The position numbers were made by a program, and so were the translations under genes. The notes beneath the pieces were generated by a model. The model saw only the letters and a list, made by a program, of their open reading frames with translations, was not told where the DNA came from and made no database searches. 29,615 nt of DNA from a virus (lineage: Duplodnaviria > Heunggongvirae > Uroviricota > Caudoviricetes), in the IMG/VR virus record IMGVR_UViG_2654587686_000021, positions 1 through 29,615 of that record. One strand, given 5' to 3'. Numbering within the stretch: the first letter of the stretch is position 1; the number at the start of each line of letters is the position of its first letter. Positions 21,600 to 29,522 of the stretch are shown here, piece after piece.

Positions 21600-23333
21600 T
21601 TAAAGCGAGCGGATCCCATAGGACTCAATGTGGTCAGACAACGTGTCTTCTTTCTCGTACAGCATGGCTCTGCCAACCGCCATAATCAGCGCAACTGCAC
21701 CATCGATTTTGTTTTCCGCCTGCTCTTTGACGGGCTTCACCACATCATCGTTACCCGGAATGGTTTTGCCGACCACGTTGCCGATACACCAGGTCATGAT
21801 GGGATTGCCATCATGATGAAAGCGCCCCGATTCAATTGCCGCTTCCAGCTCTTTCATCGGGTCGGACATGTTGGTGTAGTTCTGAATGATAGTGATGGGG
21901 TTCAGGTCTTCATCAGCAAGGTCATGTGACAACCCGGTCGCCCCGAAGGGGTCGATGGGTGACTCACTGACCGGGCTGATTTTGTTCGCCGCTTTGGCCT
22001 CCTCGAGGATGTAGCGATAATCCACCTCCGCACCATCGGTAACGGTCAGAACGCCCATTTCCACCCATTTCTGAAAGCGTTCGGCTGTCCGGCGATCTTC
22101 ATTTTTCTCGACGCTGTACACCGTGTCATACGGTACCCAGAAACGCGGGGCCACACTGTAGTAATGCGTTTTACCATCAATCTCGCGGGTATAAAGTCGC
22201 GCCATGCTGTTCATATCCAGCTTACGCGCCAGGTCAAAGGCCAGAATGCACGGCTGCCCCTCGAACTGCTCAAGGGTCAGTGATTTATCCTCGCAGCTCT
22301 GCCAGCTCACCAGGTTGAAATACGCCGAACGCGCCGACACCCAGATATTGAGGTGTTTTGTTTTAAAGACGTTTGCCAGACGGGCGTTATTTTTCGCACG
22401 CTGCTGCTGACTTAACAAAAATTCGCGATAAACCGACACGCCAATATTTGGATTGGCTTTTTCCAGCACCTGCGGGTCGGTCCAGTCGTCACCTTCATCA
22501 ACGGTATAGATGATCCCGAACAGTTCATCGTTAGGCACCGAGCCGTTGAGCATCTCGATGACTTCCCGCCGTTTGTCGTAGCACGGCCCCTCAATGTTGT
22601 ACCCGGCGGTAGTGATAGCCCACATCAGTGGCTGACGTCGCGCCCCCATCCCGGTAAGCATCGTGGTGTAAAGCGCATCTGTGGCGTGCTCGTGATATTC
22701 ATCCACCACCGCACAGTGGGGTGATGAACCATCACCGGGGTTACCGATCAGCGGTTCAAAACGCGCACCATCCTCCGGACGGTTCATGTTTGAGGCGTTA
22801 ACCTCAATCCCGAACGCTTCCGTCAGCATGGGTGTGCGTTTACACATCAGTCTTGCCGGACGAAAGACTTCCCATGCCTGTTTCTCCGTCGTGGCACCGG
22901 AATACACTTCCGCGCCGAACTCGTTATCACAGGCAAAACAATACAGGGCGACACCGGCAGAGATTGCCGATTTGCCGTTCTTACGGGGGATTTCGGTATA
23001 CACCTCACGGAAGCGGCGCAGCCGGGAGCCTTTATTGACCCAGCCAAACGCGCAGCAGATCACAAAGAGCTGCCACGGCTCCAGCGTGATGGGCATCCTC
23101 TTAAATGCCCACTCACCCTTGGTGTGCGGCAACAGCTGAATAAATTTCGCGGCCCGTTCAGCCAGGTCCTTGTCGAAGCGGTAACGAAACGACTTACTTT
23201 TTTCCTCCATCAGGTCATCAAGATGGCGCTGGCAGGCCTGAATCACAAACTGGCAGGCCACAATCTTTCCGCGCACGACATCACGGGCATACTGATTGGC
23301 AGCATTTACGTTGGGGTAAGATTTCCGGCTCAT
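21600..23333 (-). CDS. Terminase large subunit
   Basis: 577 aa downstream of the small terminase with overlapping stop/start. Confidence 0.88.
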
Positions 23334-23833
23334 GATTCGATGATTTTCAGAAACGGGTTAGTGGCTTTCTTCTGCCCCGCCAGGCCAATCAGACGCTGGC
23401 GGCTGCTGGGGTCGAGTCCGAGCATTGCCCCCGTACTGCTCATCTCGGACTCCTGTTCTTTTTTGGCGGTCAGCTCCGGATTTTTGACCATACCGCCCAT
23501 TGCACCGGTGATGGTGTTGCCCTGTCTGGCAATATTTTTCACGGCACGTCGCCAGAACTCGTAGGCCACGCACCACCGCTCAAGCACCGCGAGGTCAGTC
23601 ACGCACAGCAGGCCCTGACCGCAGAGTTCTTTAGTTGTCAGTTGCCACATGATCGTAGCGAGAGGGAGATCTTCTTCAGCGAACCACTCCGGTGGCTCAA
23701 CACCTTTGATGGGCGTAAAAACAGGTTCATCTTTATTCAGGGCTCGCTTGCCGGGGTTTCCGGCCTGCGCCTTGCGCGCCGTTGGCTTGGGGCGACGCCC
23801 GGAACGCCCCGCCGTTCCAGCCATATGCGGCAC
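23330..23833 (-). CDS. Terminase small subunit (P27 family-like)
   Basis: 167 aa, basic N-terminus [34 protein letters not shown], upstream of large terminase. Confidence 0.8.
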
Positions 23834-23874
23834 TCCTGGTTAAATTTCATTTTTCGCGGGTATAAAAAAACGAT

Positions 23875-23923
23875 GGGGCGGGCAGTCCGGAAGACGTCAG
23901 GTCACAGGGATGTGACCCGCCCC
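23875..23923. repeat. GC-rich nested palindrome in the HNH-terminase intergenic region (candidate cos element)
   Basis: ggggcggg ... cccgcccc outer inverted repeat enclosing ggtcaca-ggga-tgtgacc. Confidence 0.35.
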
Positions 23924-23949
23924 TCCCCTCAGACAGTTGAGAGTTATTA

Positions 23950-24300
23950 TCACTTTAACCGTTCACGGGCCGTCTTCGCCTTATGACACGGCCAACACAG
24001 ACTCTGCAGATTACAGTCGGCATCAGTGCCGCCATGCGCTTTAGGGATGATGTGGTCAACGGTTTTCGCCTCACGCACCACACCGGCACGCAGACATAAC
24101 TGACATAAACCTTTGTCACGCTTCAGCACACGCGCGCGGATAGCGTCCCACTTCGAACCATAACCGCGCTGATGACGGGACTGACCTGGCTTGTATTGCT
24201 TCCAGCCTTCGCTTTTGTGGCTTTCGCAGTAGCCTGACGGGTCTGTGGTTGTAGAGCGGCAGCCGCGAACACGGCAGGCTTTTGGGGTTCGTGGTGGCAT
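23950..24300 (-). CDS. HNH endonuclease (terminase-associated)
   Basis: CxxC ... HIIPKAHGGTD ... N ... CWPCH motif; immediately upstream of terminase small subunit. Confidence 0.85.
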   Translation of the reverse strand: MPPRTPKACRVRGCRSTTTDPSGYCESHKSEGWKQYKPGQSRHQRGYGSKWDAIRARVLKRDKGLCQLCLRAGVVREAKTVDHIIPKAHGGTDADCNLQSLCWPCHKAKTARERLK

Positions 24301-24311
24301 TGGTAAGCTCC

Positions 24312-24344
24312 AATAAAAAAGCCACCATCGATTGCTAGTGGCTT
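24312..24344 (-). terminator. Intrinsic terminator after moron gene (stem aagccac/gtggctt, then T-tract on minus strand)
   Basis: Minus strand reads aagccac tagcaatcgatg gtggctt followed by ttttttatt. Confidence 0.55.
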
Positions 24345-24379
24345 AGCATCTACTAATGTTACTAATGTGAAGAGTAGGT

Positions 24380-25138
24380 TTATTTTTTCTTCTTATTTAA
24401 CTTATCTAAATTGACGGGATCTTTCCCTGTGGCAGCTAAACACCAAAAAGAATAACTCTTTTGCATGACATAGGTTCTAATTCTCTCTAATGTTTCATTA
24501 TATTTTTTCTCAACAACCTGTATCGCATGTTCAAATAAATTAATCATATCAACATGCTCGTCCTCGACACCAATCATGCTCAGTTGTTTTCTATCTGTCA
24601 CTGCTTGATAAAATGTTTTCCCATTTTTCCTTATTAGTAACAATGAAGTTTCTGCTGACTCATAGTCTTGGTTGCCGCTATGTGCTGCAAAATTATGCCT
24701 GTAGTTAATAATACAGTCATGCAACCCAAAATATTCAGAATCAAGCCAATCACGCTCCATCTTTAACTTTCTCCCTTTAGCTTCAGAGAAAGCTTTACCA
24801 TAAAACGTTAGGCTTGCCACAAATAACGCTCTAATTTCACTTGATAAATCTAGATCAAGTATATTCCCGTATAACTTGCCATCTGTCCTTAATTCGTTTC
24901 TCCCTGCCAGTTCATTAGCTATTTGGTACCACTCTTTAGCACTTTTTAAGTCCCTATGAATTAGGGACAGTGAAGATGCTCTATCGGCAATACGCCCACT
25001 CAATTTTATGCGATCTACAATTTCATTATTGAATGTATAAACCGCTTTAAATTCCCCCGTTTCGGAATCAATATAATATTCAACATCTAACCCTTCATAT
25101 GATTCACACCCGGGACCTTCTAATTTTTTTCTTTTCAT
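24380..25138 (-). CDS. Hypothetical protein (AT-rich moron between lysis cassette and packaging genes)
   Basis: 252 aa from the first ATG (ORF-track start 25162 is a TTG). No motif I recognise; AT-rich with Lys-rich termini; own terminator downstream. Confidence 0.6.
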   Translation of the reverse strand: MKRKKLEGPGCESYEGLDVEYYIDSETGEFKAVYTFNNEIVDRIKLSGRIADRASSLSLIHRDLKSAKEWYQIANELAGRNELRTDGKLYGNILDLDLSSEIRALFVASLTFYGKAFSEAKGRKLKMERDWLDSEYFGLHDCIINYRHNFAAHSGNQDYESAETSLLLIRKNGKTFYQAVTDRKQLSMIGVEDEHVDMINLFEHAIQVVEKKYNETLERIRTYVMQKSYSFWCLAATGKDPVNLDKLNKKKK

Positions 25139-25219
25139 ATAGAATATCCATATACGTTTCAATTCTCAGTCAGCATAGTAGAAAAAAAAGATGTCCAGAT
25201 CCATACATCGAAAGCAATT

Positions 25220-26785: not shown

Positions 26786-27727
26786 ATGAGTACAGAAAAT
26801 AAGAATAAAACCAGGCGAGTGAGAGTTGGTTTTTTCACTGGTAATGGAAGCAAAAAAGATGGCACATCTGCTGCAAAACTAGCCTTTGAGCAAATGACCA
26901 CAGCAGATACTGTAACTTTTCCAATAACTTACACAACAGACACCCCAAGTCGAGGGTTAAAGTTAGTTATTCTTCAAAAAGATACCACACTGCAATGTTA
27001 CTTTGGTTACGTATCGTGGAGAAGGGAATGCCTACTACCGTTCATCGAGGATGCTACAGGTAGTGAGAGAACAATTCCTTTAAATGATAAAGATTCTGTA
27101 GTTGAAAGAACATATTTTATCTATTACTACGAAACGGACTTATTAGCTATGACCCTCAACCATATAGGGCCCAAAGTAAATGATCTGGCATTCATTTTGT
27201 ATAACAAAACTGATTTAAAAAGCGTCACTTTTGAAGCCATTTGGAAACAAGAGAGCATGAAGGAACTGCTTGAGGACGGAAATATCCTACGTAGTTTCGA
27301 TCTTATAGTTGCTGCTCCAAGAAACTTTAACAAAGCTAATTATAAGATTAAAAACCCTTTAGCTAATGAAATTATTGACATGGTTGTTGGTATGGGCGGG
27401 TCGCATCTAAGATTAAATATGCGAGGTCGGATTCGCCCGAAAAAACAAGGGTTTAACTATCTAAAAACTTCTGTCACCGATGCTATTAAGGAACTACTTG
27501 AACTTTTTCCAAAAGGTTCTGGAGGTCTAAAAATTAAAAAAATTGATGTAACAGAGCCATCCAATAGAACGCCCAAAAGTCTACTTGACCAAGTATTGGT
27601 CAGTACAAAGACAATCATTGTCAAAAGCGGTTATCCATCCGATTCTGATATCAGAACGGCGATGATATCTGCTAAAATTGATAACGCGAACTATCTTGCA
27701 CAGTATGAGCTCGCTAGCAGAGACTAA
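26786..27727 (+). CDS. Hypothetical soluble protein, first gene of AT-rich two-gene cassette (candidate sensor of an abortive-infection/defence module)
   Basis: 313 aa with no recognisable catalytic motif; AT-rich codon usage unlike flanking phage genes; followed 21 nt later by a membrane-protein gene with a strong ribosome-binding site. Confidence 0.6.
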   Translation: MSTENKNKTRRVRVGFFTGNGSKKDGTSAAKLAFEQMTTADTVTFPITYTTDTPSRGLKLVILQKDTTLQCYFGYVSWRRECLLPFIEDATGSERTIPLNDKDSVVERTYFIYYYETDLLAMTLNHIGPKVNDLAFILYNKTDLKSVTFEAIWKQESMKELLEDGNILRSFDLIVAAPRNFNKANYKIKNPLANEIIDMVVGMGGSHLRLNMRGRIRPKKQGFNYLKTSVTDAIKELLELFPKGSGGLKIKKIDVTEPSNRTPKSLLDQVLVSTKTIIVKSGYPSDSDIRTAMISAKIDNANYLAQYELASRD

Positions 27728-27748
27728 TAACCAAGCATGGAGGACACA

Positions 27749-28198
27749 ATGAGAGAATTAGCCACTTTTCTCTGGAAATGCGTCCTCTGGATTCTGTTGA
27801 CCTATGCAGCGACAAAACTGTTTAAACCGATGAAGCATGCTGACGTACTCACAACAGCGGGGGTGCTCTCGACTATATCAGGCATCCTGTTTGGTTTTGT
27901 TCTGGCTGCAATATCTATATTTAGTAGTGCAAACAGCGATAAGGAAGGAGCAATTAATGCCCTTAAGCAAAACAACGTGTTACCAACTCTGGTAAATAGA
28001 TTACTTTCAACAGGGTTAACTCTCATCGTCGCATGTATATTTCCATTGATAGCGATGTTTCTACCTGATGATGTTATTGTTGCGGGCAAACCTATTGATT
28101 TCCTGTTCATACTGTTAGGCTTATCCTCCCTTATAATTTCGCTATATACCTTCGGAAGGTGTTGGTTAGTGTTACGAAAAATCTTCCCCCACTTGTGA
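27749..28198 (+). CDS. Small polytopic membrane protein (four predicted TM helices), second gene of the cassette
   Basis: GGAGGA ribosome-binding site 4-5 nt upstream of ATG 27749 (ORF-track start 27737 is 12 nt further up). Hydrophobic segments FLWKCVLWILLTYAATKLF, VLTTAGVLSTISGILFGFVLAAISIFSS, LLSTGLTLIVACIFPLIAMFL, IDFLFILLGLSSLIISLYTF. Confidence 0.65.
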   Translation: MRELATFLWKCVLWILLTYAATKLFKPMKHADVLTTAGVLSTISGILFGFVLAAISIFSSANSDKEGAINALKQNNVLPTLVNRLLSTGLTLIVACIFPLIAMFLPDDVIVAGKPIDFLFILLGLSSLIISLYTFGRCWLVLRKIFPHL

Positions 28199-28616: not shown

Positions 28617-29522
28617 TCAGGCCAACACCCCAATCGCCAGCGCGCGATCGATAAAACGAAATATCAGCTCCAGTTGGGAGCCATACTTCTCTTCAAATGC
28701 CACGGTATCCGCATGCAGCTCGTCGTGATGCTTTCTGCACAAAGGCAACACAAAGAGGTCATGCGCTTTTGTACCCATTCCACCCTGACCGTGACCTATC
28801 AGGTGGTGGGGATCATCAGCAGGCTTTCCACAACATGCACACGGCTGTGTCTTAACCCAGCGCGTGTACTTTTCATTAACCCAGCGGCGGCGTTTTGGGC
28901 GTAACATAAAAGACTCCAGCGACTCCGGATCCACTTTCAGCGCCAGCACCTTTTTCGCTTTATCCTGGATAATGCTGGTGGCAGGAACCGAAGGCACAAG
29001 GTCACTTTCCCGGGTGACCGCCTGCACAACAGGCTTCGGTAATCTCAGTGCCTTACGGGCTGCACTTTCCGGTAAGGCATCCGCCAGGTCATTACGAATC
29101 AGCCACCAGCACAGTTCCGGTATTGTCACAACGTGACTATCATCAAAACCGAGATCCCGACGCACAACAGACAACACCCAGCGGGCACAGTTATCCGTTG
29201 CCATTGATTCCAGCCGTTCCGTGAACTGATCGCGCAGCTGGTTATCGCAGTGCCAGCACAAACGGATTGCGCCCGGAGCGTGTCGCATTGTTGTCATGTT
29301 CTCGCTGTGCCAGTCGGAATGAGGCCACTGGCAGCCTTTTTCACGAAGTAACCAGCTTTCAAGACATTCCACGCCACCAGCACGACGGATCACTGCCTCA
29401 TTGCGGAATACGGCCCGAACGGCAGGATCATCCGCCAGCGGTTGTGATGCCGCCGGAACGGCACCACTGGCGAAAGATGAATAACGTTCCGGCTCAGGCT
29501 CCAGCAGGACACGCCCCTGCAT
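28617..29522 (-). CDS. Lambdoid nin-region protein with C-terminal Cys/His-rich HNH-like motif (DUF968/YdfU-like, from memory)
   Basis: 301 aa; C-terminus CACCGKPADDPHHLIGHGQGGMGTKAHDLFVLPLCRKHHDELH; immediately upstream of Q. Confidence 0.5.
   Translation of the reverse strand: MQGRVLLEPEPERYSSFASGAVPAASQPLADDPAVRAVFRNEAVIRRAGGVECLESWLLREKGCQWPHSDWHSENMTTMRHAPGAIRLCWHCDNQLRDQFTERLESMATDNCARWVLSVVRRDLGFDDSHVVTIPELCWWLIRNDLADALPESAARKALRLPKPVVQAVTRESDLVPSVPATSIIQDKAKKVLALKVDPESLESFMLRPKRRRWVNEKYTRWVKTQPCACCGKPADDPHHLIGHGQGGMGTKAHDLFVLPLCRKHHDELHADTVAFEEKYGSQLELIFRFIDRALAIGVLA

Follow-up and report, generated by a model that had tools for sequence, protein, structure and literature searches.

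Does the GC-rich palindromic stretch located between the HNH endonuclease gene and the small terminase gene of this phage DNA mark the ends of the virion genome, and if so, which of its parts are responsible? The window, i.e., the whole stretch of 29,615 nucleotides analyzed here, carries this element in an intergenic stretch extending from 23825 to 23949. A preliminary description based on the sequence had suggested two possibilities, namely that the element might be a cohesive end (cos) site or that it might be only a terminator following the HNH gene.

The flanking genes had been correctly named in that description as an HNH endonuclease and a small terminase: both assignments agree with the open reading frames (ORFs) and with the Pfam families identified, and both genes are on the minus strand. 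The genes of the packaging module adjacent to the site are the following:

23950-24300, minus strand: HNH endonuclease gene, encoding a packaging HNH protein similar to HK97 gp74 (PF01844, E = 5e-15; phrog_144)
23330-23824, minus strand: small terminase gene of the P27 family (PF05119)
21600-23333, minus strand: large terminase gene with ATPase and nuclease domains (PF03354, PF20441)

The HNH gene is the last one before the site along the direction of late transcription, and the holin, endolysin, spanin, and HNH genes, the site itself, and the small terminase, large terminase, and portal genes occur in this order on a single strand. The HNH protein matches HK97 gp74 (BLASTP, E = 2e-10), and the large terminase matches the N-terminal 219 residues of HK97 gp2 (BLASTP, E = 5e-11). 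The small terminase showed no similarity to HK97 gp1 either by sequence or by profile, and a Foldseek comparison was not significant.

Three other loci of the window were noted in passing. A low-GC insert between the spanin and HNH genes (24319-25162, minus strand; 32-40% GC, with the flanks at about 55-58%) codes for a 260-aa protein of unknown function (phrog_8440, E = 2e-117), ends in a canonical terminator of its own (24344-24319), and looks like a moron within the late operon. A second, large ORF of the HNH family (301 aa, 28617-29522, minus strand; phrog_96, E = 8e-162) lies near the right edge of the window and has no relationship to the small packaging HNH protein. Two ORFs without a known function, located at 26786-28198 on the plus strand (phrog_7651, 313 aa, and phrog_8552, 153 aa), are oriented against the late genes and lie immediately upstream of the lysis cassette.

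The palindromic features of the intergenic stretch are as follows:

23875-23923: outer inverted repeat, consisting of the arms GGGGCGGG (23875-23882) and CCCGCCCC (23916-23923), 8/8 complementary and separated by 33 nt
23900-23917: inner hairpin, consisting of GGTCACA (23900-23906), the loop GGGA, and TGTGACC (23911-23917), 7/7 complementary
23864-23870, minus strand: T-tract of seven T (A7 on the plus strand)

Both repeats are present where the preliminary description had placed them, but they are not strictly nested as it had claimed: the 3' arm of the inner repeat (23911-23917) shares 2 nt with that of the outer one (23916-23923), so that the two stems cannot both form fully at the same time. 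The T-tract reported on the minus strand (23870..23864) is likewise present, though 4 nt (ATCG) separate it from the outer stem. The frequency of such repeats expected by chance was estimated using first-order Markov simulations of the 29.6-kb window, in which the 8-nt repeats were allowed loops of up to 40 nt. Perfect inverted repeats of 8 nt numbered about 17 per simulated window and perfect hairpins of 7 nt about 15, and strict nesting was observed in 2% of the simulations. Both repeats only weakly exceed chance, and neither of them is statistically remarkable. Since repeats of these sizes are common in the simulated windows, the palindrome alone is weak evidence, and the case for a function rests on homology and conservation instead.

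A 1.1-kb region including the site shows 95-99% identity (megablast) with Shigella phages SfV, SfII, SfIV, and SfI, as well as with several E. coli and Salmonella phages. The ends of the SfI virion DNA have been directly sequenced by run-off sequencing, which yielded a 10-nt gap, 5'-TGCCCGCCCC-3', relative to the prophage, and cos packaging was inferred as in SfV (PMC3636060); the cos site is stated to be identical in SfI, SfII, SfIV, and SfV (PMC3851460). The SfI record, which ends in ...CCGGAC TGCCCGCCCC and restarts at GTCGTTTTTTT / GTCGTTTTTTTATACCCGCG, was aligned base for base with the window. Since this record breaks exactly between 23875 and 23874, the cohesive end corresponds to 23884..23875 on the minus strand, that is, to the arm of the outer repeat nearer the terminase genes together with 2 additional nt. 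Positions are numbered below from +1 = 23874, the first minus-strand base past the 10-mer. Over -49..+60, the window differs from SfI at three positions: it has C where SfI has A at 23912, within the TCAAATC motif, a C/T difference occurs at 23908, and at +1 (23874) the window has A and SfI has G.

The linear GenBank records of the related phages vary as to where in the cos region they open. Expressed in coordinates of the window, the SfV record starts at 23891, that of SfII at 23949, and that of SfI at 23874, and the ST64B record ends at 23840; among these four, only the SfI record coincides with the mapped end. The SfV start lies 6 nt upstream of the SfI cohesive end, and the published records differ on the exact end.

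The record ends of HK97 and the Burkholderia phage phi644-2 were joined and then lined up with the window, and the three sequences aligned without gaps. All three show a G-run followed by T(C/G/A)AAA(T/A) from -41, a spacer, GAC, a GC-rich 10-mer, and a small-terminase ATG at +50/+51. Along the minus strand, the site can be divided into the following parts:

23916-23930, minus strand: G-run GAGGGGAGGGGCGGG (-56..-42), a high-information block in the 80 distinct relatives described below, likewise found at this distance in HK97 and in HK97-like loci
23909-23915, minus strand: TCACATC, the window's variant of a TCAAATC-type motif, starting at -41, counted from the 3' terminus of the cohesive end
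23889-23908, minus strand: variable spacer (-34..-15), holding the 3' arm of the inner hairpin
23885-23888, minus strand: GGAC, directly 5' of the cohesive end, with AC at -12,-11 in 76/80 distinct sequences
23875-23884, minus strand: 10-nt cohesive end TGCCCGCCCC, identical to the SfI end mapped on virion DNA (PMC3636060)
23864-23870, minus strand: T7 run (+5..+11), with TTTTTA at +7..+12 nearly invariant across relatives
23840-23863, minus strand: ATACCCGCGAAAAATGAAATTTAA (+12..+35), candidate cosB-like small-terminase recognition site and the most conserved non-coding block

The last 8 nt of the G-run GAGGGGAGGGGCGGG constitute the HNH-proximal arm of the outer repeat. The start of the TCAAATC-type motif at -41 is common to the window, HK97, and a Klebsiella phage; the TCACATC of the window falls within the 5' arm of the inner hairpin, and the TCAAATC present in most relatives breaks this hairpin. 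In the spacer (23889..23908), no conserved pairing was found among the relatives. The GAC preceding the cohesive end also stands before the mapped ends of HK97, phi644-2, and SfI, and the cohesive end itself is in register with CGCCCGCTTC of phi644-2/phiE125 and CGCCGCCAAA of HK97. Within the +12..+35 block, CCCGCGAAA is invariant or nearly so, and the best-conserved part is ATACCCGCGAAAAAT, located at +12..+26 between T7 and GAAATTTAA. The position of this block corresponds to that of the small-terminase site of HK97 (+15..+29, CTAACCCGATTTTTT; PMC11331095). The small-terminase ATG of the window follows the cut at +51, with AGGAG (23833-23837) in front of it. A search by eye for an IHF site (WATCAANNNNTTR) around the cut yielded no convincing match.

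In order to compare these parts among relatives, one genome per species was scanned with a small-terminase alignment, which gave 80 loci with small-terminase identities ranging from 48% to 98%, in Enterobacterales, Pseudomonas, Burkholderia, Comamonas, Herbaspirillum, and Gilliamella. Anchoring on CCGCGAAA yielded 80 distinct 120-nt sequences, which aligned almost without indels and gave the consensus gGGGagGGGggGGt.aAAtc...ggAC/cGCcccCtca/gtcgtaTTTTTAtaCCCGCGAAAaATgAAaTTtAa (the slashes bound the 10-nt end). The layout common to these loci consists of the G-run and TCAAATC (-56..-35), a variable spacer, GAC, a GC-rich 10-nt end, a T-run, and a near-invariant ACCCGCGAAAAATGAAATTTAA block on the terminase side, and the HK97-like loci retain the same left half. 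The mean identity to the window is 87% over +5..+35 (75 species), 71% over the G-run block, 70% over codons 1-40 of the small terminase gene, 65% over the cut block, and 41% over the spacer. In some lineages, such as Xenorhabdus, the terminase-side block is located about 50 nt further from the ATG; since its distance from the start codon varies in this way, this block behaves like an independent unit and not like a translation signal.

Several observations on the surroundings of the site were made in the course of this comparison. Among those of the viral contigs L003-L082 whose small terminase is 99% identical, the sequence hardly varies between about -19 (CTTCCGGAC...) and the beginning of the small-terminase gene, the cohesive end included, and beyond about -20 in the upstream direction, where the HNH 3' end lies, it falls into several distinct types; this switch from invariant to variable sequence points to a recombination (mosaic) boundary within the cos region, at about 20 bp on the upstream side of the cohesive end. 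Many relatives (L093-L172, L173-L252) carry a dyad upstream of the G-run, at -100..-49, overlapping the HNH stop codon, in the form of ATGAGA-N5-TCTCAT or AATGATAATCATTATCATT. It matches the Fur-box consensus at 16/19 positions in L101, L111, L143, and L144, and at no fewer than 13/19 positions (>=13/19) in 22/76 sequences; the version present in the window (23931-23955, GTGATAATAACTCTCAAC) is degenerate, and Burkholderia phages carry a GC-rich 10-11-bp palindrome in its place. This Fur-box-like dyad was set aside as a signal, since it is heterogeneous among the relatives. Vibrio phage H20 (L091) was omitted from the comparison: its HNH gene, annotated "holin," abuts the P27-family small-terminase gene with a gap of only 6 nt and without any intergenic block. 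Since there is no cos-like block between these genes, the packaging site of this phage must be located elsewhere or inside the coding sequence.

Taken together, these comparisons indicate that the site is very probably the cos of an SfV/SfI-type temperate phage with an HK97-like packaging module. It carries the cohesive end TGCCCGCCCC and the near-identical flanks of the SfV group, and it shows the characteristics of HK97-type cos sites: it lies between the HNH gene and the small and large terminase genes, with all three on the same strand; gp2 and gp74 have homologs in the large terminase and HNH proteins; and the GAC, the GC-rich 10-mer, and the first-packaged side are in register with the mapped ends of HK97, phi644-2, and SfI. 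The idea initially put forward that the element marks the virion DNA ends is thus supported by its homology with mapped cos sites. The element is, judging from its sequence, a near-identical copy of a mapped cos site that is already known, and for this reason it is not novel.

The prominence initially given to the palindrome, in comparison, was not borne out. The palindrome itself, acting as a cruciform or as a symmetric protein site, might conceivably be the signal recognized by the terminase or the HNH protein, its nesting being functionally required. The two perfect repeats do fall in the cos region, strict nesting is as rare in the simulations as stated above, the arms are 41 bp apart, i.e., about four helical turns, and the cosN of lambda likewise has partial two-fold symmetry. 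Natural variation nevertheless largely refutes this reading, which we regard as scarcely credible. The mapped phage SfI, as well as SfV, carries an imperfect inner repeat, GGTCAAATCTCTGTGACC, and HK97 has no corresponding repeat. Among 76 species-level relatives, the inner stem is complementary at 7/7 positions only in the window sequence, and the outer one at 8/8 positions in 4/76; the inner hairpin is also perfect in a few viral contigs having an identical intergenic sequence, such as L042. The outer stem shows 53% Watson-Crick pairing among the 76 relatives, vs. 38-57% when the partner is slid by 1-3 nt, and the inner stem shows 39%; the longest complementary run in any register averages 5.05 nt, vs. 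4.44 nt in composition-matched shuffles. The G-run and the 10-mer vary independently of each other: the former stays GGGGCGGG where the cohesive end becomes CGCCGCCTCA, and becomes GGGGGAGG where the end stays TGCCCGCC. The palindrome was rejected as a structure, since the register-specific, slid, and any-register tests and the RNA folds of the individual sequences all gave composition-level pairing only. The outer "repeat" results from the complementary base composition of the G-run and the C-rich cohesive end, and the inner hairpin, which is perfect in the window because C replaces A at 23912, is an accident of one substitution. The palindrome does not appear to be the functional unit or the feature under selection: one of its arms is the cohesive end and the other is part of the separately conserved G-run.

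Another reading is that the element is only or mainly a Rho-independent terminator of HNH/lysis transcription, with pairing in the RNA between the G-run and the C-rich stretch, followed by release of the transcript at the U7 run. The minus-strand RNA does fold with the outer stem and is moderately stable (-33.5 kcal/mol, z = -2.8), a U7 run occurs 4 nt past this stem, and in 47/76 relatives the fold of lowest energy joins the C-rich end to the G-run region over 5 nt or more. Yet a terminator scan called nothing at the site, although it detected the canonical terminator located 400 nt upstream (24344-24319), and the stem with a short loop directly before a U-run typical of terminators is absent here, the loop being 33 nt long and the U-run not adjoining the stem. 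Nor is the stem pairing maintained in the relatives, where the in-register pairing equals that of the slid controls without any compensatory changes, the longest complementary run compares with the shuffled value as given above, the mean fold z is -1.28, and the pairing shifts register. HK97 has no T-run beside its cohesive end, and in the window the terminase and head genes are located directly downstream on the same strand. With these genes following holin, endolysin, spanin, and HNH, the window has the gene order of a lambdoid late operon, in which the terminase and head genes have to be read through cos. A search with the Rfam covariance models gave a chance-level match only (RsmV, 13 bits vs. 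a gathering score of 100, E = 0.44). It is therefore highly improbable that the element serves only as a terminator, as had been proposed alternatively, and a minor additional effect on transcription is conceivable.

Whether this particular copy of the cos is still used is a different matter. It might be a relic in a defective prophage, homologous to cos sites and without any present function here: SfV-type prophages are very common, as described below, many prophages decay, and the window is a 29.6-kb piece of a phage that may be incomplete. An intact cos could also belong to a prophage that is defective in packaging. Full-length ORFs with strong family matches are present, however, for the HNH protein, both terminase subunits, and the portal, and conservation of the cos block equals that in isolated phages capable of forming plaques, which makes a relic rather unlikely.

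Judging from the homology, the terminase cuts replicated concatemers at this point into unit genomes. The predicted nicks are staggered, one falling between 23875 and 23874 (minus strand) and the other between 23884 and 23885 (plus strand), and would leave the 10-nt GC-rich cohesive end TGCCCGCCCC (minus strand). Packaging would proceed from 23874 toward lower coordinates, the terminase genes entering first. The cohesive end is probably a 3' single-stranded extension of the right genome end. Since run-off reads stop at 5' ends, a gap between such reads means that the 5' ends are recessed and the extensions are 3'; the polarity proposed here follows from the fact that SfI shows a "gap" and not an overlap (PMC3636060) and from the 10-nt 3' extensions described for HK97 (PMC9410871, PMC11331095) and for phiE125/phi644-2 (CGCCCGCTTC; PMC2920897).

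By analogy with HK97, the cuts would be made by the nuclease of the large terminase, aided by the adjacent HNH protein. The small terminase of HK97 acts as a roadblock stalling the motor at cos, and gp74 stimulates cleavage (PMC9410871); this small terminase binds +15..+29, a site comprising a critical C:G pair and an A-tract (PMC11331095), and about 25 bp of DNA stays in the lumen of the large terminase after cleavage (PMC10359639). In the window, the ACCCGCGAAAAATGAAATTTAA block at +12..+35 (23863..23840) might form, together with the T-run, the recognition site of the small terminase, which, when bound at +12..+35, would stall the incoming motor with the cut site held in the nuclease. The ATACCCGCGAAAAAT region is the natural candidate for an HK97-like small-terminase site, the support for which from the protein comparison is modest.

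The G-run and TCAAATC block (-56..-35) would constitute a second sub-site on the last-packaged side, and its possible roles include a termination signal similar to cosQ of lambda or a docking site for the nuclease or the HNH protein. This sub-site is kept across unrelated small-terminase families (the HK97 gp1 type and the P27 type), whereas the terminase-side block (CCCGCGAAA...) tracks the small-terminase family. The fact that the G-run/TCAAATC block is shared with HK97, that the large terminase and HNH proteins are homologous, and that the small-terminase families differ suggests that it is read by the shared machinery. We tentatively raise the possibility, which we hold to be somewhat less than an even chance, that HK97-type cos sites have in common a position-fixed sub-site of this kind at -56..-35 on the last-packaged side, where it would be recognized by the large-terminase/HNH/portal machinery that these phages share. 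A description of such a sub-site was not found in the literature searched, which consisted of papers other than the original HK97, SfV, and HNH ones.

The 1.1-kb region was found to be present in 1204 of the 5426 complete E. coli genomes (1390 places of this HNH-small-terminase region), and the 88-nt cos core in 1097 of the 5426, i.e., about 20% (1213 places), where it carried no annotation among the matches listed. With 1213 places for the cos core vs. 1390 for the region, there was no excess in E. coli of orphan cos copies such as those of phage satellites without terminase genes. The genome ends and the direction of packaging would thus be pinned down for a type of prophage occurring in about one fifth of the complete E. 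coli genomes. The conserved sub-site layout is only a mildly new observation, and the current understanding of cos phages is unchanged by it. The gapless comparison over about 80 species nevertheless provides, for the HK97-type machinery, now a structural model system, a map of cos sub-sites that can be put to the test: this map separates the fixed bases, the part tracking the small-terminase family, and the part common with HK97, and could guide packaging experiments of the HK97 type.

Among the known systems, the closest are SfI, SfV, SfII, and SfIV, which have the identical 10-nt end, flanked by the same HNH gene and the same two terminase genes; in the SfV record, no gene lies between spanin and HNH, where the window has its extra low-GC gene. 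HK97 resembles the window in that its cos lies between the HNH and small-terminase genes, with a G-run and TCAAATC from -41 and an ATG about 50 nt downstream, and the window has a CCCG-plus-A/T-tract motif at the place where the HK97 small terminase binds. The two differ in their cohesive ends (CGCCGCCAAA vs. TGCCCGCCCC), in the sequence and offset of the downstream sub-site, in the small terminase (gp1 has no Pfam match, and that of the window belongs to PF05119), and in the fact that HK97 has neither an inverted repeat joining the G-run and the cohesive end nor a T-run beside the latter. The phages phiE125/phi644-2 share with the window a P27-family small terminase (53% identical), a 10-nt 3' extension, CGCCCGCTTC, in the same register, and an identical downstream CCCGCGAAAAATGAAATTTAA block; their cohesive-end sequence is different, and they have a GC-rich palindrome upstream of the G-run instead of an AT-rich dyad. 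In lambda, the extensions are 5' and 12 nt long, the cos has R sites for gpNu1 together with an IHF site, and an HNH partner is absent. No sequence relationship with the cos of the window was seen, nor was any expected, and the likeness to lambda lies in the three-part plan of the site, with one part for nicking, one for binding of the small terminase on the first-packaged side, and one conserved element toward the last-packaged side.
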